This document shows, one piece after another, positions 4,097 through 61,174 of a DNA stretch of 64,000 nucleotides. Source of the DNA: a plasmid. The notes beneath the pieces were generated by a model. It saw nothing but the letters and a program-made list of their open reading frames with translations, did no database searches and had not been told where the DNA came from. The stretch is taken from sequence record NZ_CP013482.1; one strand, 5' to 3'. Each line of letters begins with the position of its first letter. Position 1 is the stretch's first letter. The position numbers and the translations under genes are program-made.

Positions 4097-7000
4097 TTAC
4101 ATCTTAATCCCTCGTGCTTTCTTAACCCCCTGGTTGTTTTCTTGCTGACGCTCGGCAACCGCGCGCTCAATGACTGGTCGCAACTGACGTCGCACTCCAT
4201 CGCGGCCTGCCTCGCTTCGCATAGCGAGATCGTTCCAATCGGTGAATTTCTTCATCCCGTCGATCGCACGCCGCTGCTCCGTCGAAAGATTGGTTTTAAC
4301 GTCATCCAGCGTTTTTCCGCTCATAAGGACGTAACCGTCTTCCGCATCCAGCCGACGTTTGTGTTCACGCCATGACTCGGGTGTCACTGGCGGAATCCCT
4401 TCGGGGTACTTCGCCTCTGCGTCAGGGAAGATCGGGAACAATACGGTCCCGCCTACTTCTTCGGCTGCGGCCAACGCCTTTTCTCTGCCAGGGTTCTTGC
4501 CGACTGTCATCGTCACGTGTCGATCGTCGTCGCCGGCGAATAAAATTGGCGTGTCGGGAAACTTGGCTTTCAGCGCCTTAGCGACGGGTGCGAGGTTGCC
4601 AGCGTCAAACGCTGAGATCGATTGAACACCCAGACCCGCAAGCTCCCTGTCTACGGTGTCCATCGTCGCGTAGCCCTCGCCTATCACGAACGCTTTCGCT
4701 TTCGCCAGGGATGCGTAACCGTTTAGCGCGTGAAAGCAGCCCTCCTTTCTCGAATCCGATACGAACAGCTTCTCGCCCTTCGGATTAATCGACTGCATCG
4801 TCCATACCTTGCCATCTACGTCGTACGCGGGGACATAGGTTGTCCCGCTGGAGTCTTTCAAGACAAATTCACGCGCAAGCGCGCCTTTTGCTTCCAAGTA
4901 CGGCGTGGCCGTCGTTATCGGTGTCAGCTTGCCAATTCGCTCTGAGACCTTCGACGCTGTCAGCTCGTAAGCCGCTTGGCGCTCGGCCTCAAATTCTTTT
5001 CGCCGTTGTTCGGCCTCTGCCAAGACCGCAGCCAACTCAGCGCCATCAAAGCTATAACCCTTCGCCTTCCATTTGGCCTGCGCTCCGGTACGATTGTTCA
5101 TCGCGAATCCTGCCGGCCGCGTTCCCTCAAGGTGGCCGACATAGAAAATCGAGCGGTCTGCGGATCCAGGCTTATCGTCCGTGGCACGCACCCTGTGCTT
5201 CTTCCCATCCATCAAAGGGTGGAACCCCTTGATTTTCGGGTCGTACTCGGACAAATCGGCGTCCATGCTGCGGAGAAAGTCCGAAAACTCCTCCCGAGGA
5301 TCCTTCGCCGGCCCCTGCTCAAGCGGCACATTTTCTGGCTTCCACCGCGCGAGCTTCGATACGTCAGCCCCAGAGCCGACGTACCAGGAACCGGCCCGCT
5401 TATCCCACTTCGCGCCGGCCGCACGAGCCTCCTCGCGGTCGTCATACGGCACAGCCAGGTAGACGCGATGGTTTTGGTCTGGCGTGCGAGAAGGCTGTTG
5501 CGATGGTTGCTGCGCGGCACCTTCGGCTGCTCCTGCGGCTGGAATCCACTTGGAAAACGCATTAGCGTCAACGCCAGGGGGCACGTACCACGATGACGCG
5601 CCTCTGTCCCACTTGGCTCCCAGCGCCTTCGCTTCGTTCTTCTGTTTGTACGGTACGTCCAGGTACGTCAACCCTTCGCGTTGGGGAGTAGCGTCGGGCG
5701 TAGGTACGTCGCCATCACTCAGGCTCGCTATGGCCTGTGCCTCCTGTGCTTCACGCACGAAACCCGGAATCTTGCCCACACGGTCGGCCAGCATCTGCGC
5801 TTCGTCCTGAGATGCCACATCCGCGATCCAGGTGTGCGTGCCGTCAGAGTCCTGGGCATAGACGCCCCAAAATTCCGGCGCGTCACCCTCGCCAGCCGCC
5901 CTTACGAAGCGCTCACCATCGTCTTCAACTTCGACGCAGCCTTGCACCTGCAATCGGCCGGTCCAACCCGCCGGCAACGCTACACCAATGCTGTCCTTGG
6001 AGACGGTCTCAAAATCGGCGTCTGCAAGCTGGCCGGCGTCGAACTGCTGATACGCTCCAGCAACTTTGCGCAGCGCATCCTCGCTGATGTTCACATCGCC
6101 ATCAAACGCCTTCACGATCTCCTCCTTGTCAGGGTCAATGCCCATCATCTGCACGCCTTGTTTCGGCGACACTTCTTCAACCGGCTCCTGCCCTGACGTC
6201 AAATCTTGAGCGATCTCTTGCTTCTGCTCCAACCCCAGGATGTATTCCTGGATTTTCTCGGCATCGGCTGCTGCGCGGAAAATCTCCATCGAATCGTCTC
6301 GCAAGACCTTTATCCACGACTTCACATACGCGGCGTGCTGCCCCGGATCGTAGCCGATGCCCAACTCATCGCCCAGGATCATGCTCGCGATTTCGGCGCG
6401 CAACTCCTCTTTGGCGTATCCCTCGCTGCCGAACGGATGCGCGAGATCCCGGCCCAAGCGCGACTCATGCCCCGTCCAGTGCCCCAATTCATGCAATGCG
6501 GTCGCGTAATACCCGGCCGGTTCAGCAAACCGCGACTTATCTGGCATGTGAATGTCGTCACTGGACGGCCTGTAGAACGCGCCATTGCCTCCGTGATGAA
6601 TCCGGGCGCCGGATGCTTTCAAGACCCGCTCGGCCCGCTGTAGGGCCGGAGAATCGCCCTCATGATCGCCCCCGAGGCTGGGCACCTTCGTCACGCGGTC
6701 CATCTCGGGCATTCCGTCGATCTGTTCCCCATTGAACACGACCGCTGTGAAAACGCGCGGCCGTTCAAGCTTCACCTGCACCTTGACTGGCTCGCCGGCT
6801 TGGTCGCGAACGATTTCGCCTTTTGCGTCACGTTTGACTTCTTCGTCCGAGAACTTCCAATACTGGATCGGCGTACCGCGCTCCCCGCGACGGACTTGCG
6901 CACCGACCGACGTAGCCTGCTTGTACGTAAGCCATCGCGTATCGCTTCGCCCTTGAGCCATCAAGAACATCGCGTTGATACCTCGATAGCGCTTTCCGGT

Positions 7001-7138
7001 TGTTGGGTTGTGCGGAAGAAATGTCGACGGCTCGCCCGGCGACCAAGGGCGCTGCCAGGGGGCCACGCCGCGCTCAAGCTGGGCGATCAACGTTTCCGCG
7101 ACCTGCTCGTGGAACGGACGTTTCTTCGGTTCAGTCAT
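4097..7138 (-). CDS. traC: TraC-like multidomain protein: ArdC N-domain + HExxH zincin + two DUF5710-like repeats + Toprim primase domain
   Basis: N-terminus PWQRPW...GINAMFL; HELGHWTGHESR; two (A)KWD..SWYV repeats; C-terminal Toprim (FAGDDD); ATGA overlap with the upstream gene. Confidence 0.75.
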   Translation of the reverse strand: MTEPKKRPFHEQVAETLIAQLERGVAPWQRPWSPGEPSTFLPHNPTTGKRYRGINAMFLMAQGRSDTRWLTYKQATSVGAQVRRGERGTPIQYWKFSDEEVKRDAKGEIVRDQAGEPVKVQVKLERPRVFTAVVFNGEQIDGMPEMDRVTKVPSLGGDHEGDSPALQRAERVLKASGARIHHGGNGAFYRPSSDDIHMPDKSRFAEPAGYYATALHELGHWTGHESRLGRDLAHPFGSEGYAKEELRAEIASMILGDELGIGYDPGQHAAYVKSWIKVLRDDSMEIFRAAADAEKIQEYILGLEQKQEIAQDLTSGQEPVEEVSPKQGVQMMGIDPDKEEIVKAFDGDVNISEDALRKVAGAYQQFDAGQLADADFETVSKDSIGVALPAGWTGRLQVQGCVEVEDDGERFVRAAGEGDAPEFWGVYAQDSDGTHTWIADVASQDEAQMLADRVGKIPGFVREAQEAQAIASLSDGDVPTPDATPQREGLTYLDVPYKQKNEAKALGAKWDRGASSWYVPPGVDANAFSKWIPAAGAAEGAAQQPSQQPSRTPDQNHRVYLAVPYDDREEARAAGAKWDKRAGSWYVGSGADVSKLARWKPENVPLEQGPAKDPREEFSDFLRSMDADLSEYDPKIKGFHPLMDGKKHRVRATDDKPGSADRSIFYVGHLEGTRPAGFAMNNRTGAQAKWKAKGYSFDGAELAAVLAEAEQRRKEFEAERQAAYELTASKVSERIGKLTPITTATPYLEAKGALAREFVLKDSSGTTYVPAYDVDGKVWTMQSINPKGEKLFVSDSRKEGCFHALNGYASLAKAKAFVIGEGYATMDTVDRELAGLGVQSISAFDAGNLAPVAKALKAKFPDTPILFAGDDDRHVTMTVGKNPGREKALAAAEEVGGTVLFPIFPDAEAKYPEGIPPVTPESWREHKRRLDAEDGYVLMSGKTLDDVKTNLSTEQRRAIDGMKKFTDWNDLAMRSEAGRDGVRRQLRPVIERAVAERQQENNQGVKKARGIKM

Positions 7139-7658
7139 GGCGGCCCCCTTCGAGTTCGACGAAGCCCGCGCGGCCGGAATCATAGGCGTCCTCGACCCAA
7201 GCGAAGTGGAATACCTTGGCGTTGGCTACGGTCAGCAGGCGGGCGCGCAATCCCGCGAACGACAACGGCAGCGTTCGGATAACTCCAGACAGGGAGATAG
7301 GCGTGATCGAGCTGCCCACGGGTAGCTGCGTGGCCGCGTGGCTCAAAGCGATGGCGAACCACGGCACCAGGTCACTGTTCGGTCCAGCAATGCGACGTGC
7401 GACGGCAGCTTCGGTGAGGTGGTCGGGATCCGCCAGCAGCACAACCAGGTCGACGACCGTATCGAGCGCGTCGGAATCCGACAACGCGTCTTCGTGGAAC
7501 GCCCCCGCATGCTCCGCTTCAATCGGGTCAAATTCCGCTTGCACGCCGGGTTGATAGGCGTCGGTCAGCTTGTCCGACACGGCGGACGATCTGACCCAGG
7601 GGCGAACGCTGGCGCCCTCATCCAGAGACGCGAATTGGTCAATTGAGTGCATTGTCAC
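7131..7658 (-). CDS. TraD-position hypothetical protein
   Basis: ORF coupled by ATGA overlaps to traE and traC. Confidence 0.5.
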   Translation of the reverse strand: MTMHSIDQFASLDEGASVRPWVRSSAVSDKLTDAYQPGVQAEFDPIEAEHAGAFHEDALSDSDALDTVVDLVVLLADPDHLTEAAVARRIAGPNSDLVPWFAIALSHAATQLPVGSSITPISLSGVIRTLPLSFAGLRARLLTVANAKVFHFAWVEDAYDSGRAGFVELEGGRHD

Positions 7659-12495: not shown

Positions 12496-15180
12496 TCATA
12501 AGGATCTTCCTCGTGTTCGGATCTTGCCGCCGACTTCCGTCGAGATCGCGGCACCAATCGCAAGACGCCGCAACCGGTTCGCTGTAGCTGCGTCGACGGG
12601 CAACACCAGCACCGTGTCGTCATGCCTCAAAAGGGCTAACTGGTGCCCGTCAACCGTGCGAAGGCCGGTGAAATTCAATACGCCTGCGTGACGATCATTA
12701 TATCGCTCATGTTTCTGTATATCGAAACTATTGGCACGTTTCCCTTCGCGTTCTTGGACGTACTTATCCGCTGCGGACCACGCCGAAGTACTCAGTCGGT
12801 CAGCAGGTGCGGCCCGTCGCACGCCAGAACCTCGGTCGGCTTGTTTGTCGTCCAGACTTCCGCGTACATCACGCGGCACCAGCAGGCCAGGCGATCCGGC
12901 GTGTGGTTCCATATAGAGTGTGGGCAGGTTTCGCATGCGGTACGCTTGAGGGGGCGGTGCTTTTCGTCCAACTGCGCCAACGTTGGGCTTAGGGGCAAAT
13001 GGGCTGCTGCGCCCCCTGACGAATCGGTCAGATCCTCGGCCTCCCCCTCGCTTGATCGACTCGGCATATTGCCCACGCCCAACATCGCCACCGCTGCGTC
13101 CAGATCCGCGTCGCTCATGGTGTCGCTGTTCGTTGAACCCGGCACTTCGCTGAGCACCGTCTGGTCGATTCCGTTGTGTTCGCTCATCAAAACTCTCCTG
13201 TTGATGCTTCTGCTTAAGTGCCTCGACACGCCGACTCTCTAGGTTCGGGTCGACGAACGAGACACGGATTCGCGCGCTCGCCGCCAAATCGGCCACGCGC
13301 TGTTGAAACTCTGTGCTTCCTGTCAGGGAAACCTTCCCGCCATGCCGGTCGGCCGCGAGTTGCAGCGCTGTCGCAAGCACCTCGTCAGGCGCGTTCCGGG
13401 TAACGCTGAGTCGACGACCGTCATCGCGAATGGCGGCATTCGCCACTCGGTAGATGACCGTTCCAGCCTTGGTAATGGAGTCAATCGCCCTCGGCCTCAG
13501 TGCTTCCGAGTCGGAGGAGCGTTCGACGGCCCGTGCCTGTGCCCGGGCGTCCCAACTCGCTTGGTATCGCAAAACGGCGAGGGCGCTTTGGTCGCCCTCC
13601 TCAGCTCGATCTCTAAGCCAGTCCGCCCACGCTAGGGCCTTATGCGCCTTGCTCGCCTTCGGGGGGCGTTGCGAATTGAAATTTGCGTGCGCCTTGGAAA
13701 TAGCGCCGTGCAGACGCTTACTCACGATGCCGTATAGGAATCGCTTGTTGTAACCGCTCCCCTTGAGCAACTTGATAAGCGCGCGCAGGCGGGCCGCAGA
13801 TCGCTTCGCATCTTCGATCGTCTGAATCCGCGCCTGCCGCGCGGCGCCCATATGAAGCTGTTTCGAGCGTTGAACGTCAGCCTTCTCTTCGCGGTAACGC
13901 CGATACAAGGCATCGGCCTCTGCGGACGGATACACCGGTCGCTTCGCATACCACTCTTGCCGCTGCTGCGTGGGTGAAGTGCCGTGTTTGCCTTGCCGCC
14001 AAGAAGCCGGCGCAGGGGAACCGATAGACGTCTCTGCGCCTTGCGCCGGAAGATCCCGATTTCCTATGGACGGCCTTACTCGGTGACGGTACGGTGCCGG
14101 CGGTGGTCGCGTCCCAACCGCCTCTACGGTTCGACGCCCCCGCCGCCAGGATGAAATCAAGTCCGGATCCGGGGCTTGTCGCGGTATGTGCGCATGCAAA
14201 TCACGTCTTCCGGGCAGGCCACCTGACCGGATTGCTCGCGGGCTTTCGGGCCTCGTCGTGGCCGAACGCACGGGTGGCGCTCTGCGCCGCCAAGAGGCCA
14301 CAGCGCTCGTGCTCGGCACTGCGATGGTGACTCTATCAACACCCCGTCGCCCAACCTGCCCCCTACGTCCAGCGGCGTCCGGCACATCGTCGCCGGCCAG
14401 CCGTTTGGCCCCGCGAGGTGGTTCGTAGTCGCCCCACTGTTTTAATAACCGGGATCTGGATAGAGACCTATCAACTGAACTGGCTTTTACCTTGATGCCG
14501 TCCCTGCTTTCAAATACGAGTCCGTTGCCCTGCTCCCGAACTGCCAATCCTCGCGCACGAGCTATGTCATGCAATTCCTGCCAGTTGTTGGCCTCTCGCA
14601 ACTCCGAAACGCACTCTCTCTTGATCCAACCAAGGAGACTTTCAACGCCCGAATGGCGCTCCATGTCGTCGGCTCGATTTTCAGAGCGCGACTTTCGCGC
14701 GGTGTGGTTGTCGCGCTCCAGGTCAAAGCGCTGCTCCAGCTCGTCGCACTTCCGCGCCAACGTTTTGTAATCCCGGTAAGGCGTGTGCATCGTTAGATGC
14801 TCCGGGTGGATCTTGTTAATCGCGACGTGAATATGCAGGTTGTCTGTGTCGTGGTGAACCGCGCTGATTCGCTGGTGCTCACCATATCCTAGCGCTTCGC
14901 ACAACTCGGCTTCCACGACGGAAAGCACATCGCTGGAGGGATGTTCGCCAGGCGGAAATGAGATCAGCAGGTGATAGGTTTTGTCTCCCTCAGCGCGGAG
15001 ATTCATCCCCTGCACCGCCTGAACTTCGTAAATCGCGTCAAGCGCTTCGCGCTGCTCGCAGTTGGTGACAGTCACCGCCCCGACCCGCTCCTGCTTTGTC
15101 TGAGGGTCACATAGATACTTCACCAGTCTTCCGTAACTGCTTTTCTTGACCGATTGCATCGGCAAATTACGGGCGATCAT
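12496..15180 (-). CDS. traI: MobP relaxase TraI
   Basis: N-terminus MIARNLPMQSVKK; three-His motif HHDTDNLHIHVAINKIHP. Confidence 0.9.
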   Translation of the reverse strand: MIARNLPMQSVKKSSYGRLVKYLCDPQTKQERVGAVTVTNCEQREALDAIYEVQAVQGMNLRAEGDKTYHLLISFPPGEHPSSDVLSVVEAELCEALGYGEHQRISAVHHDTDNLHIHVAINKIHPEHLTMHTPYRDYKTLARKCDELEQRFDLERDNHTARKSRSENRADDMERHSGVESLLGWIKRECVSELREANNWQELHDIARARGLAVREQGNGLVFESRDGIKVKASSVDRSLSRSRLLKQWGDYEPPRGAKRLAGDDVPDAAGRRGQVGRRGVDRVTIAVPSTSAVASWRRRAPPVRSATTRPESPRAIRSGGLPGRRDLHAHIPRQAPDPDLISSWRRGRRTVEAVGTRPPPAPYRHRVRPSIGNRDLPAQGAETSIGSPAPASWRQGKHGTSPTQQRQEWYAKRPVYPSAEADALYRRYREEKADVQRSKQLHMGAARQARIQTIEDAKRSAARLRALIKLLKGSGYNKRFLYGIVSKRLHGAISKAHANFNSQRPPKASKAHKALAWADWLRDRAEEGDQSALAVLRYQASWDARAQARAVERSSDSEALRPRAIDSITKAGTVIYRVANAAIRDDGRRLSVTRNAPDEVLATALQLAADRHGGKVSLTGSTEFQQRVADLAASARIRVSFVDPNLESRRVEALKQKHQQESFDERTQRNRPDGAQRSAGFNEQRHHERRGSGRSGGDVGRGQYAESIKRGGGRGSDRFVRGRSSPFAPKPNVGAVGRKAPPPQAYRMRNLPTLYMEPHAGSPGLLVPRDVRGSLDDKQADRGSGVRRAAPADRLSTSAWSAADKYVQEREGKRANSFDIQKHERYNDRHAGVLNFTGLRTVDGHQLALLRHDDTVLVLPVDAATANRLRRLAIGAAISTEVGGKIRTRGRSL
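12792..13229 (-). CDS. Nested alternative-frame ORF inside traI (traH-like position)
   Basis: 145-aa ORF in a second frame of traI; RP4 encodes traH inside traI the same way. Confidence 0.3.
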   Translation of the reverse strand: MSRHLSRSINRRVLMSEHNGIDQTVLSEVPGSTNSDTMSDADLDAAVAMLGVGNMPSRSSEGEAEDLTDSSGGAAAHLPLSPTLAQLDEKHRPLKRTACETCPHSIWNHTPDRLACWCRVMYAEVWTTNKPTEVLACDGPHLLTD

Positions 15181-15639: not shown

Positions 15640-15760
15640 CGCAGAGCAGGATCCCCGTTGAGCACTCCGTGCGAATAAGGGATGTGAAAGTAGCTAACCG
15701 GCCTGCCGGTTAGCTACTTTCACCTATCCTGCCCGGTCTTCGACCGCGATTACTCCGGGA
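15640..15760. promoter_or_regulatory. oriT: Origin of transfer, RP4 type: 19-bp inverted repeat 15684..15702 / 15705..15723 and nic site ATCCTG|C at 15726..15732
   Basis: gtgaaagtagctaaccggc ct gccggttagctactttcac ctATCCTGcccgg. Confidence 0.85.
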
Positions 15761-16374: not shown

Positions 16375-17102
16375 TGGCAAAAATTCATGCGGTACTAAAC
16401 GGTAAGGGCGGCGTCGGCAAAACGTTTGTAGCGACGCACATTGCCCAGGCTATCCAATCAATTAAGGGAAAGGTCCGCGCGATCGATACGGATCCCGTCA
16501 ATGCGACGTTATTCCGATTCAAGGCGCTAGACGTCCAACGAATCGAAATCATGAAAGACGACGAGATCGACACCCGCTTATTCGACAAGCTCGTGGAATT
16601 TTGTGTGAGCGACGATACCGACGTCGTAATAGACAACGGGGCAAGCTCGTTCGTCCCGCTATCGCATTACGTGATTTCCAACCGGGTTCCGGCGCTACTT
16701 CGAGAGTTGGGGCACGAGCTAATCTTGCACGTCGTCATTGCCGGGGGGGACATGTGCCTGGATACGATCAACGGCTTTGACCAGCTCGCCAGCCAGTTCT
16801 CCACAGACGTTCAATTTGTGGTGTGGCTGAACCCGTTTGTTGGGGATGTTGTTGTGAACGGGAAGACGTTTGAGCAAATGAACGTCTACCGCACACATAA
16901 GGACCGGATCAGCGCCATCGTCGAGTTGCCGAAGGTGAAAGCCGAGACCTATGGCAAGGATCTGTCTGAAATGATGGGCGATCGACTGACTTACGACGAA
17001 GCGGTGGAAGACAGCAAACGCCATATCATGGTTCGACACCGACTCCGCTCGATGCGAGATCAAATCATGAGACAGCTCAAAGCCCTTCCGGTACTCCAAT
17101 GA
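16374..17102 (+). CDS. traL: P-loop NTPase TraL
   Basis: MAKIHAVLNGKGGVGKT deviant Walker A. Confidence 0.8.
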   Translation: MAKIHAVLNGKGGVGKTFVATHIAQAIQSIKGKVRAIDTDPVNATLFRFKALDVQRIEIMKDDEIDTRLFDKLVEFCVSDDTDVVIDNGASSFVPLSHYVISNRVPALLRELGHELILHVVIAGGDMCLDTINGFDQLASQFSTDVQFVVWLNPFVGDVVVNGKTFEQMNVYRTHKDRISAIVELPKVKAETYGKDLSEMMGDRLTYDEAVEDSKRHIMVRHRLRSMRDQIMRQLKALPVLQ

Positions 17103-17551
17103 CCGAAACCTACGTCGACGAACTCATCAAAGACATTGCCGTTCGGCACGGAGTCGCGCTCTCCCCGGACGATCCCATCTTGATCGTGTCTACTCTCAAC
17201 CGGAAGTTGATCGCTGATGGCGCGGAAGCCCAAGAGGCAATACTGCAAACATTTAAGGAGGAACTGGAAGGGATCACAGGGCGATGGAACGCCGAGTCAA
17301 AAGAGCGGGCAGAGCGCATCTTGAATGCCGCTCTCACAGCCAGCAAAGAGGCTATGACACGCACCATGAGTGAGGCCAGCACAAACATCGTCAATCGGAT
17401 CCAGGCGGAAGCCGCCGTTTATTTGCGGAGCGCCAGAGAGGAAGCAAAGGCTATCCGCACAAGCAGTATGCTCATTCTGGCTGCTAGTGGCGTTTCGTTT
17501 CTTGCCTCCGCAGGTGCCCTTCTGGCTTGGGTGGCCAACTTTAGCCGCTAA
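17099..17551 (+). CDS. traM: TraM
   Basis: Position after traL, 150 aa, overlapping start. Confidence 0.65.
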   Translation: MTETYVDELIKDIAVRHGVALSPDDPILIVSTLNRKLIADGAEAQEAILQTFKEELEGITGRWNAESKERAERILNAALTASKEAMTRTMSEASTNIVNRIQAEAAVYLRSAREEAKAIRTSSMLILAASGVSFLASAGALLAWVANFSR

Positions 17552-17552: not shown

Positions 17553-17641
17553 AATCGGTGGCTGACGCGCCACGCGCCGAGCGTCGCCGACCACCAACCC
17601 CCCATCGCCCCGCCATCGAGCGGGGCTTTTTTTGCCCGTGT

Positions 17642-17654
17642 TTTAGCCGCTAAA
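17642..17654. promoter_or_regulatory. KorB operator OB
   Basis: TTTAGCCGCTAAA. Confidence 0.75.
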
Positions 17655-17690
17655 AAGTCAACCTAAACCTCTTGCTCAGTTTTATAGGTG

Positions 17691-17930
17691 CAGGCCAAGG
17701 CCGAGGCGGCCGAGCAGACTCACCAGGAGCAGCGCAAGACGATGGCGGCCGAGGCGCACCGCCAGGCCGAGCGGCTGACCGCCGCCTAGGGCGAGCGCGA
17801 CCAGGCGAAGCGCGATGCCGCGCAGGCAAGGGAGGAAGCAGCCGGGCTGCGCGGCCGGCTGGAAGCTCTGAAAGCCGTCATGGCCCAAGGCCGGCCGACT
17901 GATCTCAGCGGCGGACGCAAAAAGACCTGA
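17691..17930 (+). pseudogene. GC-rich Ala/Glu/Gln coiled-coil gene remnant (KfrA-like) with an in-frame TAG
   Basis: QAKAEAAEQTHQEQRK..LTAA*GERDQAKRDAAQAREEAAGLRGRLEALKAV; locally ~70% GC. Confidence 0.35.
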
Positions 17931-18087
17931 TAAACCGGTTGATTTTCCTTAAAAGCGCAAAGGGAAGCGCGATGCTGCAAAAGAGCGTGAGTTTTTCACT
18001 CGCGACGACTGACGATCAAGGCGGATTAGCGCACACCGACAAAAAACAAAAGGGGCACTTCCGTGCCCCTTTTTTGCGCCAGATGAG

Positions 18088-18696: not shown

Positions 18697-19656
18697 TTAG
18701 CGGGACAATCCTCGGCCTTGATGCTGACCGACCGCCGCAACAACGGCACGCCCCGTGGTCTGATTGTAAGAGATAGATTTGCTGCTGCCAATTTCAGGGG
18801 ATTTATCGAAATTAGACCGTTCATGAACGACAAACTGCTTCCCGACCTGCTGGAAAACACTAACCTTGTCGACGTGGACTATCGCACCTTCGGTTGTTGC
18901 CTTTCTGTCTGCTGGCACGGCCAGGGAAATGTTATAGATGCCTGGTTTAAGACCGTTCGCCTTATCCACCCGATCATTGCGCCAGGTTGGCTGCCCCGAC
19001 GCATCGCTGGGTGGTTGCTCGCTTTGAACGATTCGTTGACCATTCATGACGAGTACACGGTGCTTCATGAATCCGCTCCTCGGTTCGTGGTACCGCCCTT
19101 GAATTGGAGCGATCACCGGTTCAATGATGGCGGCGAGCGCCTTCGAGTCCGCATTTACTACCGCCAAATCGCGCGCGAAGTAAAGTCGCGCTCTCGCCTC
19201 CCTGTCCACAGGAAGCCGTGACCAGCCCAACTCAAATCCGGCCTGCATGGCCAGGTCTGATGTGAACTGTCGTAGCGTCCTGCTATTCCCCTCGCGAAAC
19301 GGATGAACTGCGTCCAGCTCACCGTACAAATGCGCTACCTTCGTTGCGAAGGCTCTCTGATCTAGTTGTTTTAAGTAGCCGTCTGCCGACAGGCTATCGA
19401 AGATTTTCGCCAGCTCAGGCACGACAGCGCGCAGGTCTCCGGCCCAGTCATACACCCCCTCAAAAATACGGCGGTGCGTCTCTCTCAGTCGGCCAGGGCC
19501 GAACGGCAATGTGATGGGGGAGGTTGCTATCGCGACAAGATTGAAAGCGACCATTTGCCCCTCAAAGGCATCTAGGTCGTGCTGCGTCCGACAGTCAGCC
19601 AGGTTTCTCAGGACTGTCGAACCGTCGTAGCAGTAAGGATCTCTGCGCGCCGTCAT
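18697..19656 (-). CDS. Fic-domain toxin (VbhT-like) with a ~130-aa C-terminal extension
   Basis: Fic motif HPFREGNSRTLR; N-terminus YCYDGSTVLRNL; start overlaps the antitoxin stop. Confidence 0.8.
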   Translation of the reverse strand: MTARRDPYCYDGSTVLRNLADCRTQHDLDAFEGQMVAFNLVAIATSPITLPFGPGRLRETHRRIFEGVYDWAGDLRAVVPELAKIFDSLSADGYLKQLDQRAFATKVAHLYGELDAVHPFREGNSRTLRQFTSDLAMQAGFELGWSRLPVDREARARLYFARDLAVVNADSKALAAIIEPVIAPIQGRYHEPRSGFMKHRVLVMNGQRIVQSEQPPSDASGQPTWRNDRVDKANGLKPGIYNISLAVPADRKATTEGAIVHVDKVSVFQQVGKQFVVHERSNFDKSPEIGSSKSISYNQTTGRAVVAAVGQHQGRGLSR

Positions 19657-19847
19657 GCCAACGCGTGAGCGCGGGCATGCTGAGCGTGATATGCGCGAAT
19701 CTTCTCGCGACCGTCTTCTAAACTGTTCTCACCGGCGATCACTTGTGCTTTGACTGCCTCATAACGAGCGTCCTCCGATGGAGTCAGCCCTTCGAGACTA
19801 AGGCTGGCCTCGGCCTTCCGAAAGGCTTCCGCGTAGTTTTTGTTCAT
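19653..19847 (-). CDS. VbhA-like class I Fic antitoxin
   Basis: Inhibitory SxxxEG motif (ASLSLEGL) as in the recalled VbhA ASQRLEGL; 64 aa directly upstream of fic. Confidence 0.75.
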   Translation of the reverse strand: MNKNYAEAFRKAEASLSLEGLTPSEDARYEAVKAQVIAGENSLEDGREKIRAYHAQHARAHALA

Positions 19848-19963
19848 GATGGCGAAGTCCTAAACGTGGCACGGAAACAACAATAGTTTAGCGCATTACA
19901 CCTAAATTCACATTCCCAATTTGCTGTCAACTGAAAATTACGGCTAACCGAAAATCCGATTTT

Positions 19964-19976
19964 TTTAGCGGCTAAA
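19964..19976. promoter_or_regulatory. KorB operator OB between korB and the fic operon promoter
   Basis: TTTAGCGGCTAAA. Confidence 0.75.
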
Positions 19977-20030
19977 ATTCTCACCCCGTAAAAAAATCCC
20001 GCCGTAGCGGGATCTTGTGAGAAGAGTGTG

Positions 20031-21059
20031 TCAGCCTTCTACCAATGCCACCAATTGAACGTCACTCAAACTTGCTTCCACCTCCTGGCCGTCATCGTCG
20101 TATTTGAGCCACGCGAACCCTTCGGCTGGAGGACGCTTATTCAACATCAGACGTGCGGGACGATCACTGTAGCGCACCTGCACGATTGCTTTTTTCAGCT
20201 TGTCCGGATCGGGTTCCCGAATTCCCTTCCCGCCGTCTGCTTTGCCTTCACCTTTGTTCTGTTGACGACCCGCCTCCGCGTCTGTTTGCCCGGTAAGTCC
20301 GTCGACCGTGTTGGGGTCACGATCCGCCGATTGACTATCGATGAATTCGCGGAGCAACTTGATCGAGCCACGCGTAATTTCCTGATCCGGGTCATCCAGC
20401 CAGTCTTCAACTTCCTTCGGATTCGCTTTGTGCGCCTTGACCAACTCGTTGACGACAGTCACATCCCGAACACGGTCATTGTAGAAAGCCTCCGCAATGG
20501 GTTCCGGGAGATCGAGAAGGGCAACGTGCTGGGAAATGAAGGCTGCGGATTTACCTAATGCCTCTGCGATTTCCCCTTTCTTGAATCCTTGAGACAAGCG
20601 CTTTCCGATGTGGTCAGCAATTTCACGCGCGGTCAATCCATCGCGCTGAATATTTTCGATGACTTGATCGTCTCGATCGTAGTCGTTATCCAGAAAGCCA
20701 GGGATCTGCGAAAATCCGGCCCACTTCGTGCCGCGATAGCGGCGTGCACCGTGATTAATCAAAAAGCGTCCTGGGGCATCCGGGTTGTCACGAAGAGAAA
20801 TGGGCGTCTTGATGCGGCCACGCCGCTTGATCGTAGCGCCCAACTCCGCGATGCTCTCGGGGGAGAAACCAGGGTTTTCGGGGCCCCGCGGCTGCGCAGG
20901 ATCCTCGTCGATCAAGCTCATGTCGAACATGCGCGGGCCGCCATCATTAGCCGTCGGCGTGGGCTTCTTCAACAACGATGCGAGATCCCCGACTTTCTCG
21001 AGACCAAGGCCGCCGCGCTTCTGCTGTTGGTTTTGACCTGCCTTTGCCGTAGCACCCAT
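20031..21059 (-). CDS. korB: KorB (ParB-family partition and global regulator)
   Basis: End-to-end similarity to recalled RP4 KorB, including C-terminal GFAWLKYDDDGQEVEASLSDVQLVALVEG. Confidence 0.9.
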   Translation of the reverse strand: MGATAKAGQNQQQKRGGLGLEKVGDLASLLKKPTPTANDGGPRMFDMSLIDEDPAQPRGPENPGFSPESIAELGATIKRRGRIKTPISLRDNPDAPGRFLINHGARRYRGTKWAGFSQIPGFLDNDYDRDDQVIENIQRDGLTAREIADHIGKRLSQGFKKGEIAEALGKSAAFISQHVALLDLPEPIAEAFYNDRVRDVTVVNELVKAHKANPKEVEDWLDDPDQEITRGSIKLLREFIDSQSADRDPNTVDGLTGQTDAEAGRQQNKGEGKADGGKGIREPDPDKLKKAIVQVRYSDRPARLMLNKRPPAEGFAWLKYDDDGQEVEASLSDVQLVALVEG

Positions 21060-47202: not shown

Positions 47203-49056
47203 ATGCAAACGAAACTCGCGGCCGGCGCTGCCGCGCTCGCGCTCATTTCCTCGCCGCACGTTGCAACAGCCCAAACCGCCGACGACACAGGCAGCGCGGT
47301 ACTGCCCAAAACCGTTGTCACCGCCGACAGGGCACCCCAACGCCTTCAGGACGCTATCCCACAGACCACGCTTATCGACAGCCAGGCGATCACGGATTCC
47401 GCCGCCAACGACCTGCCCGGCCTGCTGCGCTTGGCACCGGGCGCTCAGGTCGTCAGCAACGGTGGGCCGGGGTCTACTTCAAGCCTATTCCTTCGCGGCT
47501 CGCAAGCCAGCCAGTCGCTCGTCCTTATTGACGGCGTGCGAGTCGATTCGGTAAGCGCCGGCTCAGCGCAGATTTCGCAAATCCCACTCGATCAAATCGA
47601 TCATATCGAAATCGTGAACGGCAACGTGTCTGCGCTGTACGGGTCAGGGGCGATTGGGGGCGTCGTTCAAATATTCACGAAGGACGGCGGCAATCATCCG
47701 CCTAAATTCTTCGCCTCGGCAGGGTACGGCAGCTATCACACACAGACGCAGAATGCCGGCGTAAGTGGTGCGCTCGATGCCGACGGTCGGACGACTTTTA
47801 GCGCGTCCCTGGCGCGGTACAAGACCGATGGTTTTTCATCCATCGACCCGGCCAAGCAACCAAGCGTAAACCCGAACGCCAACGGCTACCTCAACGAGAG
47901 TGGTAGCGCATCTATCAAACACCGATTCGTGAACGGTTGGGACGTGGGTGTCCGCTACTTTCAATCCAACGGCTACAACAGCTACGACAATGCTTACGGC
48001 CAACCTACCGACTTGAACTACGGTATTAGCAAGGTGCAGCAGGCATCCGTTTTCGCCAACGGAAACGTAACCGACTGGTGGAAAACGCACGTTACGATCG
48101 CAGCCGGCAACGACCGTAGTATCCAGAAAACGAACGGCCTCTATAACGGCCGGTTTGACACGGACAATAGGCAATACACATGGCAGAATGATTTCGCCAT
48201 CGCCAGCGGCCAGAAGATCCTCGCGGGCTATGAACACCTCGACCAGAGCTTTGATTCTAGTGCCTATGCCGCCCCCTCCCGTCGCGTCGACTCAGGCTTT
48301 ATCGGCTACAACGGGCGCTTTGGTGCTCATCAGTTTCAAGCTAACCTGCGGCGCGACCAGTACTCCGATTTCGGCGGTGCAAGCAGCTATTACCTCGGGT
48401 ACGGCTACGACATAACTGATAGCTGGAAGGTTCTTGCGAGCTATTCGGACGCCTTCCGCGCGCCGACCTTCAACGACCTGTACTACCCCTACGGCGGCAA
48501 CACCAACATTCGCCCAGAGACAAGTCACTCCGTCGAAGCTGGAGTGCAGTACGCCACCGACGCGCTTGGCGTGATGCGTTTGACAGTGTTCCAAACTCGC
48601 TACTCGAATCTCATTCAGTATGCGTCAGACCTTGCGGGCAACTACACGGCACAGAATGTGGGCACGGCCAAGGTGCAGGGCCTGGAAGGCTCTTGGAGTG
48701 GGCAGGTTTACAAGACCGACGTGCGCGCTTCTTTCACTTTCCAAAATCCTGTGAACGAGGACACGCATACCGATCTGAGCCGCCGCGCACGGCACTTCGC
48801 GTCGTTCGCTGTCAACCGGAACATTGAGAGTGTGCGCGTGGGCGCTGAATGGATTCTGAGCGGTGCGCGGCTCGATGGCACCAAGCACCTCGGCGGATAC
48901 GGCCTAGTGAACCTGTCGGCCCGCTACAACATCACAAAGGCGTGGTACGTCGCCCTGCAAGTGCAGAATCTGCTGAACAAGGATTACGAGCTTGCCTACT
49001 CGTATGAAACGCCCAAACGCAGCGCTTTCATCACTCTCGGCTGGCAGCAATTCTGA
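47203..49056 (+). CDS. btuB: TonB-dependent outer-membrane cobalamin receptor BtuB-like
   Basis: Signal peptide, TonB box region, plug and barrel, C-terminal aromatic residue (..GWQQF). Confidence 0.8.
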   Translation: MQTKLAAGAAALALISSPHVATAQTADDTGSAVLPKTVVTADRAPQRLQDAIPQTTLIDSQAITDSAANDLPGLLRLAPGAQVVSNGGPGSTSSLFLRGSQASQSLVLIDGVRVDSVSAGSAQISQIPLDQIDHIEIVNGNVSALYGSGAIGGVVQIFTKDGGNHPPKFFASAGYGSYHTQTQNAGVSGALDADGRTTFSASLARYKTDGFSSIDPAKQPSVNPNANGYLNESGSASIKHRFVNGWDVGVRYFQSNGYNSYDNAYGQPTDLNYGISKVQQASVFANGNVTDWWKTHVTIAAGNDRSIQKTNGLYNGRFDTDNRQYTWQNDFAIASGQKILAGYEHLDQSFDSSAYAAPSRRVDSGFIGYNGRFGAHQFQANLRRDQYSDFGGASSYYLGYGYDITDSWKVLASYSDAFRAPTFNDLYYPYGGNTNIRPETSHSVEAGVQYATDALGVMRLTVFQTRYSNLIQYASDLAGNYTAQNVGTAKVQGLEGSWSGQVYKTDVRASFTFQNPVNEDTHTDLSRRARHFASFAVNRNIESVRVGAEWILSGARLDGTKHLGGYGLVNLSARYNITKAWYVALQVQNLLNKDYELAYSYETPKRSAFITLGWQQF

Positions 49057-57171: not shown

Positions 57172-59139
57172 TTAAGGACGGCCGGTAATGATGGCCTCTA
57201 ACTCCCCCGGTCGGCTCCGTCGGTACAGTTGATAGTAGTGGGCTCCGCCCTCAAGATTCAGGTGAGTGGTGTCGTTGCTTCTGTAAAGCGGGATGTTTCC
57301 GGCGGCCGTGGCACACATCCCATTACTACATGCGGCACCATACGTGTGCATCACTTTCACCGCCGGCAGGCGGGCCGCCAAATTCCCTACAACCTCATGA
57401 TTCGCCGCCTCAACGCCGGCCGCCGACTGGCGGCTGAATTCGCACGATCGAGCGAACGGTGACCACCTCAATCCGTTGTACAACGGACAGTTGATGAGCC
57501 CGTCAGGCATGGGGGGAACATCATCAAGGATGACGACTTGCTTGCCGGCGTCGAGCAGCGCCTTCGCCGTGCGGTAGAGATCCTCGTCAATCTGCTCTGG
57601 GCCAAACCCTCGCTCGTTACGCTTCACGTTTGACGGCGCTACGTACGCCCCCCATGTACCCGATAGGAAAACAACTTCAATGTCGCTGCTTTTCAGCAGA
57701 TAGTTCATGACCAGTCGATCATGTTCGCGGCATGGTTCATCCATATTCGGCCGCGTGCCGATCGGAGGATCCGCGACCGGAGGGCAGAGCGGCCGCGCCA
57801 TGTCGTGAACACTTAACCCGAACTCGTTGCCCAACTCCCGGAAGAAGTACACGAAGTGATAGGCGTGAGAGTCGCCCCACAGGACGGCCTTTCTTCCGCC
57901 TGGCGCCCCGACAGAACATTTCGCTTCCGACGTAACCCCTACAGCCCCCCAGCACAGTGCCCCTCGTCCCTGCATCCAGTCACGGTCGGTCGACGCGGTA
58001 TAGATTTCTCGAAATTGCTGGGGATACATGAACAGAAAGTTTGTGGACGTTCTTCCCACCGCCACAGTAGAAGCAGCAAGTGCGATCGGTGCCAGGATGT
58101 AACCGATCACGGCTCTCCTAAAGCTCACTCGCGCATAGCGCAACGGCTGCTCGACATACCGATGGGAAAGCGCAGCAACAACGAAACTCAACGCTACCGC
58201 GCAGACGATCGCGACGTCGCTCGTCAGCCCGAACCGCCGAAACGCAAAAAGTATCGGCCAGTGCCAGAGATAGATGCCATACGACCGGAGGCCGATCCAG
58301 AGCGCAACGCGATTTCCAAGCACTGCACGGATCACTTTCGAGTCGTGTCCCGAAAGAATCAGCAGAGCAGCGGGCACCGTCGGGGCGAGCGCCCAAACTC
58401 CAGGGAACGGCTTTCCGCCAATAAAAGTGGCGCATGCCAGCACGCCAATAAGCGAGAGAACGGCTAAGAGTCCACGAGCGGTTCGCGCGCTATTCCACTG
58501 GCCTAGAAACGCAACTACAACGCCCAAGATGAACTCGAACGCACGATACTGGCTGAAGTAGTAAGCCCCTGGCGCTCCCGCGCGGACTGCCATCTCTGAC
58601 CAAGCCAGAGACGCAAGCCCGAGTGCAATGAACGAAGCAATTTTGACGCGTGCTCGCGCATGACGAAGCCCAAACAACACCAGCGGAAACACCAGATAGA
58701 ATTGCTCTTCGACCGAGAGAGACCATGTGTGAAGTAGCGGCTGTTGCTCCGCCGTCGGTGCGAAGTAGCCCGTCATCTTCGCCAGGTAGACATTCGATGC
58801 GAAGCCCGCGACGTAGGCCATGTTCTTGGCAACCTCCATCGCGTCGTCCGGGATGAGAAACACCACGCTGAAAGCGAAGGTGACTGCCATCATCACGAAC
58901 AATGCCGGAACTAACCGTTTCGCACGGCGCACGTAGAAGTCGCGGAAGCGGAAGTTCCCCGCCGCTTGAGCACTACAGATGCTCCGGGTGACGACGAATC
59001 CAGAGATTACGAAAAAGATATCGACCCCAACGAAGCCACCGGCGAGTTGGCTAACCCCAGCATGGCAGGCTACGACGAGAAGCACGGCGAGCGCGCGGAG
59101 GCCGTCCACGTCGGGACGATAGTTTTTATTGCTGGTCAT
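57172..59139 (-). CDS. Acyltransferase-3 family O-acyltransferase with C-terminal SGNH-like domain (OafA/OatA type)
   Basis: N-terminus DGLRALAVLLVVACH; ~10 TM helices then a soluble domain; 655 aa. Confidence 0.8.
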   Translation of the reverse strand: MTSNKNYRPDVDGLRALAVLLVVACHAGVSQLAGGFVGVDIFFVISGFVVTRSICSAQAAGNFRFRDFYVRRAKRLVPALFVMMAVTFAFSVVFLIPDDAMEVAKNMAYVAGFASNVYLAKMTGYFAPTAEQQPLLHTWSLSVEEQFYLVFPLVLFGLRHARARVKIASFIALGLASLAWSEMAVRAGAPGAYYFSQYRAFEFILGVVVAFLGQWNSARTARGLLAVLSLIGVLACATFIGGKPFPGVWALAPTVPAALLILSGHDSKVIRAVLGNRVALWIGLRSYGIYLWHWPILFAFRRFGLTSDVAIVCAVALSFVVAALSHRYVEQPLRYARVSFRRAVIGYILAPIALAASTVAVGRTSTNFLFMYPQQFREIYTASTDRDWMQGRGALCWGAVGVTSEAKCSVGAPGGRKAVLWGDSHAYHFVYFFRELGNEFGLSVHDMARPLCPPVADPPIGTRPNMDEPCREHDRLVMNYLLKSSDIEVVFLSGTWGAYVAPSNVKRNERGFGPEQIDEDLYRTAKALLDAGKQVVILDDVPPMPDGLINCPLYNGLRWSPFARSCEFSRQSAAGVEAANHEVVGNLAARLPAVKVMHTYGAACSNGMCATAAGNIPLYRSNDTTHLNLEGGAHYYQLYRRSRPGELEAIITGRP

Positions 59140-60805: not shown

Positions 60806-61174
60806 TCATTTCCCCACCTTCTCCCTGCCGTTTTGCGGGCCATCGCTGCGTAGCTTGTCCGCCACCGCGTTACGCGCCGTCTCGTAGTCGAGATTCTCGT
60901 CAGGTGACTTCGTCACGTACGTCCCCCTGTCATCCATAATTGCCATGAAGATGTTATGCGACGCACTCTGCCGGATCTTCCCGTCTGTCATGGCATCTGC
61001 GATGACCTGACGGGCGGCGCGGCTATCAGGCCAGTTGTTTGCGATGTTTGTGTACTGCCAGGCAGGGATTTCTTTCGCGGATTCCCACGCCCCAAGGGCA
61101 CCGCCAGCCACTGCGCACAGGACCGGAACCACGATGTACGGTGCAATAAAACGCGTCGTTTTTGATAGTTTCAT
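60806..61174 (-). CDS. Membrane-anchored hypothetical protein spanning the linearisation point
   Basis: MKLSKTTRFIAPYIVVPVLCAVAGG; its 5' end is also present at window positions 1..28. Confidence 0.45.
   Translation of the reverse strand: MKLSKTTRFIAPYIVVPVLCAVAGGALGAWESAKEIPAWQYTNIANNWPDSRAARQVIADAMTDGKIRQSASHNIFMAIMDDRGTYVTKSPDENLDYETARNAVADKLRSDGPQNGREKVGK

Follow-up and report, generated by a model that had tools for sequence, protein, structure and literature searches.

A Fic–KfrB fusion lacking the Fic flap in the kfr operon of an IncP-1-like conjugative plasmid

Between traM and korB of the plasmid recorded as NZ_CP013482.1 lie two overlapping genes that encode a 64-residue protein and a 319-residue Fic protein with a long C-terminal extension. 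A first-pass annotation of the 64,000-nucleotide stretch of DNA that we analysed (the window) read this pair as a VbhT/VbhA-like toxin–antitoxin (TA) module and proposed that the extension might allow the Fic protein to travel through the plasmid's own type IV secretion system (T4SS), as a Fic toxin fused to a translocation domain does in Bartonella, or that the pair might simply be an addiction module. The question raised by the locus is what the extension is and whether the Fic protein that carries it acts as an effector, as an addiction toxin or in some other way.

Here, we find that the extension is a KfrB domain and that a single in-frame deletion has removed from the Fic half the segment that corresponds to the β-hairpin flap. 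Together, these two findings take away the main appeal of the locus, which was a C-terminal domain of unknown nature, possibly a BID-like secretion domain. Our joint reading, which we hold with moderate confidence, is that a FicTA cassette was captured into the kfr operon, that it plays an addiction or stability role in intact relatives and that its toxin is disabled on this plasmid.

Domain make-up of the fusion protein and its antitoxin

Both open reading frames (ORFs) reported by the first-pass annotation are present on the minus strand where it had placed them (Table 1). The 319-residue protein comprises a Fic core (residues 1 to ~188), a low-confidence linker (residues ~189–196) and a complete KfrB (residues 197–319), and its AlphaFold2 model, with a mean predicted local distance difference test (pLDDT) score of 91, shows a helical Fic core followed by an all-β C-terminal domain. 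The Fic half matches Pfam Fic (PF02661) over residues 56–132 with 36.1 bits against a cut-off of 24, and phmmer connects it to solved FicT-type structures with E-values of 1e-20 to 2e-22, the top sequence match in the PDB being P. fluorescens Fic-1 (8wt0, E 2e-22). The modelled Fic core superposes on VbhT, EcFicT and Fic-1 at 1.6–2.2 Å. The DPY N-terminal motif, which characterises FicT toxins (PMC5033356), is found at D6, P7 and Y8, all three invariant or nearly so in the homologue alignment. NCBIfam Fic models reach residues 3–156 only, which agrees with the initial view that the ~130 C-terminal residues are not Fic.

These C-terminal residues score 63.6 bits with Pfam KfrB (PF18790), the cut-off being 25. 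Residues 198–319 are 50–63% identical to stand-alone KfrB proteins of ~115 residues across 100% of the 122 residues, and residues 1–114 of R751 KfrB align with the extension at 57% identity. By these matches the extension is a full-length KfrB, the IncP plasmid survival protein. The junction reads ...SGF-MKHRVLVMNGQ..., to be compared with the stand-alone KfrB start MKQRLLVMNGQ, and the KfrB moiety begins at the ATG codon of kfrB itself (M197). The kfrB Shine–Dalgarno sequence is retained in the window and in a sister plasmid (L004), and its counterpart in pAKD4 and pEST4011 is AGGAG; an internal start at ATG-197 that would yield free KfrB is possible.

The BID domain folds as a helical bundle. 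A BID-like C-terminal domain is ruled out here by the Pfam KfrB match and by the all-β fold, and the proposed BID-type extension, for which a profile search and structure prediction of the C-terminal region had been suggested, gives way to KfrB on both counts; a Pfam scan of the 319-residue protein found no match to the BID family, a domain that belongs to the signal for VirB/D4 secretion (PMC8401265). Orthology to VbhT is likewise ruled out by the NCBIfam VbhT model (NF045983), which gives 80.3 bits, far from its cut-off of 800, and covers the Fic part only (residues 4–152, positions 6–169 of 419 in the model); the protein is not a VbhT equivalent.

Alignment to the DNA of the sister plasmid reveals a single clean 63-bp gap in 95.5%-identical DNA. 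Relative to all homologues, 21 residues are absent after WAGDLRA, where the sister plasmid has DTGRITKQRDGYQVTYADSTY, and the spacing from WAG to the catalytic His is 47 in this allele only, compared with 68–71 in the 116 other homologues (n=117). The deleted segment DTGRITKQRDGYQVTYADSTY, read from the intact sister protein, aligns with the VbhT flap VDIVKDNSKFA, a sequence that fits the FicT flap motif V(D/E)IxKxxxxF(A/C) between α2 and α3. In the AlphaFold2 model of our protein, residues 66–78 form a mere loop with no β-hairpin flap. The Fic β-hairpin flap sits between helices α2 and α3, registers the target via β-augmentation and provides a Lys over the α-phosphate as well as an aromatic residue that touches the catalytic His and the adenine (PMC5033356, PMC8401265). 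Because the deleted stretch covers the target-registering strand, the flap Lys and the aromatic contact, the toxin encoded by this allele is most likely disabled enzymatically on protein targets, and the retention of the flap in 116 of the 117 relatives implies that it is necessary for the function of the family. We regard 'toxin' or 'effector' activity of this allele as doubtful. An assembly artefact is an unlikely source of the deletion since the identical 319-residue protein is present on seven contigs of about 60 kb.

The 64-residue protein is encoded by the first gene of the operon, whose stop codon overlaps the toxin start by 4 bp (ATGA), and contains the inhibitory motif S15xxxE19G20 in the context ...AEASLSLEGL.... 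As a single sequence it scores 23.0 bits with Pfam VbhA, under the cut-off of 25.9, it gives no phmmer match in the PDB and it retrieves one match only in a homologue search. We gathered 10 orthologous antitoxins from the loci of related plasmids and of chromosomal relatives and used them for a family profile. S15, E19 and G20 are invariant in this alignment, 10 of the 10 orthologues match PF18495 (best E 1.4e-15) and the profile matches the solved VbhA (3zc7_B) with an E-value of 2.8e-11. Membership of the VbhA/FicA antitoxin family is well supported by these comparisons, which bear out the class I assignment proposed at the outset, and the pair as a whole is supported as a class I FicTA-type module, with an upstream SxxxEG antitoxin gene overlapping a FicT-like Fic gene.

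The Fic signature HPFREGNSRTLR (residues 118–129) keeps the catalytic His, Glu and Asn and both Arg residues. The signature of canonical AMP-transferase Fic proteins, HxFx(D/E)GNGRxxR, is not matched at the second Gly (G2), where our protein has Ser, as had been noticed. The deviation is a real change at a sensitive position, but it is not peculiar to this protein: GNSR occurs in 119 of the 120 nearest homologues, and a subfamily-wide motif rules out a quirk of one sequence. The GNSR homologues are mostly stand-alone proteins of ~207 residues on large chromosomal contigs, and each of the chromosomal relatives has a gene for a 65–75-residue antitoxin upstream with an identical 4-bp overlap. GNSR FicTA modules are also very abundant on metagenome chromosomes (L006, L008 and L009; contigs of 66–385 kb).

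Any side chain in the G2 position should hinder canonical binding of adenosine triphosphate (ATP) (PMC8401265). This position is occupied by Lys in Doc, a kinase, and by Glu in Bep8, a proposed deAMPylase, and GNSR chemistry may be non-canonical. A search of the literature on GNSR Fic proteins returned nothing relevant and no characterised or solved member, and the existence of a large GNSR FicTA subfamily is of note in its own right, as its members carry a side chain where canonical ATP binding is thought to be incompatible with one.

The kfr operon and its setting on the plasmid

The location of the Fic pair between traM and korB was correctly described at the outset, although kfrC and a kfrA remnant, which occupy the space between traM and the pair, had been overlooked. 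The product of kfrC, the third gene of the operon, scores 169 bits with NCBIfam IncP_KfrC_dom, for which the cut-off is 99, and the operon probably ends at the terminator-like hairpin directly past this gene. Read from these assignments, the order of the operon is vbhA-like, fic::kfrB, kfrC, the pair standing in the place of kfrA. Kfr proteins interact with each other and aid plasmid maintenance in IncP plasmids (PMC7783346).

The kfrA remnant is 91% identical in nucleotide sequence to the kfrA gene of IncP-1 (R751), and a tblastn search of the replicon with residues 262–342 of R751 KfrA returned 89% identity at this place. We looked for an intact kfrA across the whole replicon and found none, the inverted 3′ fragment being the only kfrA-like sequence. 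The remnant is absent from the sister plasmid. It belongs to a ~390-bp patch in the traM–kfrC gap that is without counterpart in this 95%-identical plasmid and that also carries an additional KorB operator and a terminator; the patch looks like a recombination scar derived from another IncP-1 plasmid.

Control of the operon was read from the 184-bp korB–vbhA spacer. A KorB operator, TTTAGCGGCTAAA, is present there, and the window contains 10 perfect KorB operators where 0.03 are expected. The spacer also comprises the korB terminator hairpin and a −35-like TTGACA, spotted by eye. Between TTGACA and the antitoxin start lies an imperfect palindrome, TTTAGGTGTAATGCGCTAAA, which we take to resemble a KorA-type operator (GTTTAGCTAAAC) split by ~10 bp and which could be a candidate operator for KorA or for the toxin–antitoxin complex.

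The RP4-type origin of transfer (oriT) of the plasmid comprises an 18-bp inverted repeat and then CACCTATCCTG|CCCGG, presumably the RP4 nic sequence, and the nick is predicted between 15731 and 15732 on the plus strand. From this predicted nick, the order of entry in the 5′ to 3′ direction is traK, traL, traM, kfrC, the Fic gene and the antitoxin gene. The transferred plus strand is the template strand of the traK-L-M, kfrC, fic::kfrB and vbhA genes, and the Fic pair is 2.4–4.1 kb from nic. In RP4, this region is the leading region and is zygotically induced, kfrB being up 7.3-fold in new transconjugants (PMC7314908), and kfrABC is under KorA/KorB control (PMC7314908, PMC7783346). The RP4-like orientation of oriT is in keeping with the earlier suggestion that the pair is early-entering DNA. 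Judged by the operator and by the predicted nick, the Fic pair sits in leading DNA and in a KorB-controlled kfr operon.

The window covers a complete circular element, the sequence repeating itself from position 61145 on (self-overlap). Its gene content identifies the replicon as a 61-kb IncP-1-like conjugative plasmid, with a backbone that encodes TrfA, KleE, IncC, KorB, TraK/L/M, TraJ, the relaxase TraI, the coupling protein TraG and TraE according to library scans. No close relative of the replicon was found in a PLSDB search, and public assemblies contain the same plasmid as well as the 95%-identical sister plasmid. Among the accessory cargo are genes for a 1577-residue inverse autotransporter, a TonB-dependent receptor and an acyltransferase.

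Table 1. Positions of the features discussed, numbered from the first nucleotide of the window
Feature	Position	Strand	Remarks
Antitoxin gene, 64 aa, class I Fic antitoxin (VbhA/FicA family)	19653-19847	-	ORF; first gene of the operon
Fic::KfrB fusion, 319 aa	18697-19656	-	Pfam Fic and KfrB matches; AlphaFold2 model
Deletion junction	19426-19427	-	63 bp, in frame, within codon 77; DNA alignment to L004
Fic signature	19270-19305	-	Residues 118–129; Ser at G2
KfrB moiety	18700-19068	-	Residues 197–319; begins at the kfrB ATG
kfrB Shine–Dalgarno sequence, GAGGAG	19076-19081	-	7 nt before ATG-197
Basic C-terminus, QGRGLSR	18700-18723		Disordered in models
kfrC, 197 aa	18088-18681	-	Third operon gene; begins 15 nt past the Fic::KfrB stop
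Terminator-like hairpin and T-run	18048-18073	-	Directly past kfrC; consensus scan only
KorB operator	19964-19976		117 bp upstream of the antitoxin ATG
TTGACA, −35-like	19930-19925	-	korB–vbhA spacer
Imperfect palindrome	19885-19905		Between TTGACA and the antitoxin start
korB terminator hairpin	~19996-20013		korB–vbhA spacer
korB	20031-21059		
traM	17099-17551		
kfrA remnant	17688-17927	+	Final ~80 codons of an IncP-1β-type kfrA; in-frame stop; inverted relative to the kfr operon
~390-bp patch	17553-17960		traM–kfrC gap
Additional KorB operator	17642-17654		In the patch
Terminator	17607-17626		In the patch
RP4-type oriT core	15684-15736	+	18-bp inverted repeat, then nic sequence at about 15722-15736
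Relaxase TraI	12496-15180		Contains an LPD7 domain
TraC-like polyvalent protein	4097-7183	-	ArdC-N, MPTase-PolyVal and two DUF5710 domains
Inverse autotransporter, 1577 aa	40132-44865	+	Accessory cargo; IAT_beta, ten Big_1 and Invasin_D3 repeats
TonB-dependent receptor	47203-49056	+	Accessory cargo
AT3+SGNH acyltransferase	57172-59139	-	Accessory cargo

KfrB in other proteins and explanations for the locus

An isolated KfrB model has nine strands, with a pLDDT of 89 and a predicted template modelling score (pTM) of 0.80. The fold matches the C-terminal domain of ng_zeta1 (ng_ζ1), a gonococcal zeta toxin, and next, more weakly, the OB fold of Beps; a sequence search at E-values up to 10 did not connect KfrB with the OB fold of Beps, and the resemblance is structural only. 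The C-terminal domain of ng_zeta1 was called an OB fold by its crystallographers, who noted it only in gonococcal zeta toxins and in one Eikenella homologue (PMC5923241). This 'OB-fold of unknown function' is a KfrB domain.

An exhaustive KfrB profile search of 1.84 billion protein representatives recovered 341 KfrB proteins, mostly stand-alone and ~115 residues long. The longer proteins carry KfrB at their C-terminal end or close to it, and one of them has five internal repeats. The partners to which it is fused are Fic (six representatives), Zeta toxin (six), AbiEii toxin (one), LPD7 (one, P0252), ArdC-N and MPTase with five KfrB repeats (one, P0374) and an unassigned N-terminal region (four: P0243, P0251, P0292 and P0326). 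The proteins with a C-terminal KfrB on Zeta, AbiEii, LPD7 or ArdC-N+MPTase are P0246, P0262, P0284, P0340, P0372, P0388, P0354, P0252 and P0374. The LPD7 domain fused to KfrB in P0252 is also present in the relaxase TraI of our plasmid. Polyvalent proteins have been proposed as cargo of the conjugation apparatus in a paper that does not name KfrB in its main text (PMC5512222), and a description of the recurrent KfrB–toxin fusion pattern was not found in the searchable literature. We consider these by-products, namely the toxin–KfrB fusion theme and the recognition of KfrB in the 'OB domain' of ng_zeta1, to be of more interest than the locus itself. Recurrent toxin–KfrB fusions suggest a specific and testable idea of what KfrB does biochemically.

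The account of the locus that we favour starts from a two-gene cassette, a VbhA-family antitoxin gene and a GNSR FicT-like toxin gene, that would have been captured into the KorB-regulated kfr operon and would have replaced kfrA. Loss of the stop codon of the toxin gene would have let it read through into kfrB, giving rise to Fic::KfrB, with free KfrB perhaps still being made from the surviving kfrB start codon and ribosome-binding site. In the intact relatives, the pair would serve plasmid addiction or stabilisation, the toxin modifying gyrase or topoisomerase IV and being checked by the antitoxin Glu, by analogy with the FicT toxins that AMPylate GyrB and ParE (PMC5675462). The intact toxin may be tethered via KfrB to KfrC or to the partition complex, and arrival of the KorB-repressed leading region in a new cell would set off a burst of operon expression. 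On this plasmid, the locus would now be mostly kfrB–kfrC with a vestigial Fic appendage and its antitoxin.

Several observations weigh against this account. Comparison of the window with the sister plasmid revealed no signal of decay in the Fic half past the deletion: the ratio of nonsynonymous to synonymous substitution rates (dN/dS) is 0.10 for the Fic half, 0.12 for KfrB and 0.11 for traL. The deletion could have happened not long ago, or a Fic domain without its flap could still have a role under selection. An intact antitoxin (dN/dS 0.22) would not be expected next to a dead toxin, the presence of the exact allele on seven contigs indicates that it is not rapidly lost and Bartonella Bep5 retains a flap-less FIC domain (PMC8401265). 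Regarding the mechanism, KfrA, the reported partner of KfrB, is absent from the replicon, a consensus sigma-70 promoter scan upstream of the antitoxin detected none and gyrase or topoisomerase IV as the target of GNSR Fic proteins is an analogy only.

A rival explanation is an active addiction module, in which the flap-less Fic::KfrB would still be toxic, by way of a flap-independent target or small-molecule substrate or of GNSR-linked chemistry other than AMPylation, and in which a labile antitoxin would restrain it, with the killing of plasmid-free segregants as the outcome. The catalytic motif residues are all present, the antitoxin is intact and under purifying selection, dN/dS is low in the Fic half (0.10), the allele recurs on seven contigs, the location in a stability operon fits and the side chain at G2 suggests non-canonical chemistry. 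We nevertheless find this explanation unlikely, since the deleted stretch corresponds to the part that registers the target, places a Lys over the α-phosphate and brings an aromatic residue to His and adenine and since the flap is kept in all but one of the 117 relatives. A role as an establishment factor, with burst expression in the recipient after entry, transient modification of a host target (e.g. topoisomerases) and subsequent shut-off by KorB and the antitoxin, is suggested by the proximity to nic (2.4–4.1 kb), by the use of the transferred strand as template, by the upstream KorB operator and by the 7.3-fold induction of RP4 kfrB in new transconjugants (PMC7314908). This support is purely positional. 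The antitoxin gene is co-transcribed and first in the operon and should leave no toxin unbound, chromosomes often carry this cassette in a setting to which such a role does not apply, and the flap is deleted here. We consider this role very improbable.

Delivery of the toxin by conjugation would follow if KfrB and the basic disordered tail of the fusion brought it to the T4SS of the IncP plasmid or to the strand in transfer, so that it reached recipients along with the DNA, in the manner of VbhT with its BID domain. The tail QGRGLSR corresponds to a conserved KfrB family consensus, KLSRGRSR, and T4SS signals often consist of a short C-terminus with positive charge and are then not predictable; BID fusions of FicT and PezT are known as a precedent, and further secreted TA toxins have been forecast (PMC5675462). 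In agreement with such delivery, C-terminal fusions of KfrB occur on three families of TA toxin (Fic, Zeta and AbiEii) and on the polyvalent modules ArdC-N+MPTase+5xKfrB and LPD7, proposed conjugation cargo (PMC5512222), and the best match of its fold after ng_zeta1 is the OB fold that lies behind FIC in translocated Beps. What speaks against it is the lack of a BID domain and of any sequence link to the Bep or VbhT regions outside FIC, the usual nature of KfrB as a stand-alone cytoplasmic partition accessory encoded with KfrC, the negative KfrC–TraG interaction reported for RK2 and R751 (PMC8124265), the zygotic induction of leading-DNA genes, which makes protein transfer unnecessary, and the missing flap of this allele; we judge this explanation to be quite improbable. 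We also give little credence to its more general form, in which KfrB would be a portable C-terminal module for delivery or tethering, made of an OB-like barrel and a basic disordered tail and repeatedly appended to TA toxins and polyvalent anti-defence proteins, so that these would act or travel with the transferred DNA. If it were true, IncP-type Fic::KfrB proteins would act between bacteria as effectors linked to conjugation, much as VbhT does, and a common origin with Fic::KfrB would be conceivable for the FIC–OB core of Bartonella Beps.

Comparison with known systems

The locus resembles VbhT/VbhA of the Bartonella schoenbuchensis plasmid pVbh in having a class I Fic protein with an SxxxEG antitoxin upstream, in being carried by a conjugative plasmid and in possessing an added C-terminal module, and the two Fic cores superpose at 1.6–1.8 Å with 27–28% identity. 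In contrast to VbhT, our protein has an all-β KfrB and no BID, GNSR rather than GNGR and a deleted flap, and the pair lies in a kfr operon and not beside the relaxase gene. The FIC–OB–BID Beps (BepA and Bep1) have a β domain in a similar place, to which only about half of KfrB aligns, in structure and without detectable sequence similarity; BID is absent here. The stand-alone modules EcFicT/EcFicA, YeFicT, PaFicT and P. fluorescens Fic-1/AntF share the two-gene layout, the DPY motif and HPFR(D/E)GN.R..R with our pair, which differs from them by the Ser at G2, by the longer flap of its subfamily (deleted in this copy) and by the fusion to KfrB.

A further KfrB-bearing toxin, ng_zeta1 (PDB 6EPG), is encoded on a gonococcal conjugative plasmid of the IncP1 family and is a zeta kinase acting on uridine diphosphate (UDP)-sugars, not a Fic protein. 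Its gene is in a genetic-load region, and the gonococcal plasmid, with the order traM-kfrC-kfrB-korB, also has a separate kfrB (PMC2848598). The kfrA-kfrB-kfrC operon of RK2 and R751 has homologous KfrB and KfrC, the same slot between korB and traM and a KorB operator upstream, whereas the antitoxin and the Fic domain are in the place of kfrA in our plasmid.

The closest parallels are the pJJ1886_4-type plasmids, pAKD4, pEST4011 and pIJB1, in which the order korB-(kfrA)-vbhA-fic(::)kfrB-kfrC-traM-traL-traK-oriT is as here. In the pJJ1886_4-type enterobacterial plasmids (48% identity), Fic and KfrB are fused and kfrA is also missing; among the IncP-1δ plasmids, they are fused in pAKD4 and encoded by adjacent separate genes in pEST4011 and pIJB1. 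All of them share the GNSR motif, at protein identities of 41–48%, and keep the flap. A single T in a homopolymer of 9–10 T decides between the fused arrangement of pAKD4 (L002, ~6560–6610) and the split one of pEST4011 (L003, ~6555–6608). This homopolymer lies just 5′ of the kfrB Shine–Dalgarno sequence and forms a slippage-prone junction, and the difference could be due to a sequencing error, a frameshift mutation or phase variation. Existing annotations call such proteins 'KfrB domain-containing protein', 'Fic family protein', 'VbhT' and 'antitoxin VbhA family protein', and the searchable literature yielded no functional study of Fic+KfrB plasmid loci. The sister plasmid has the same gene order and an intact flap, and the locus described here is a new and probably degenerate member of this already catalogued architecture.

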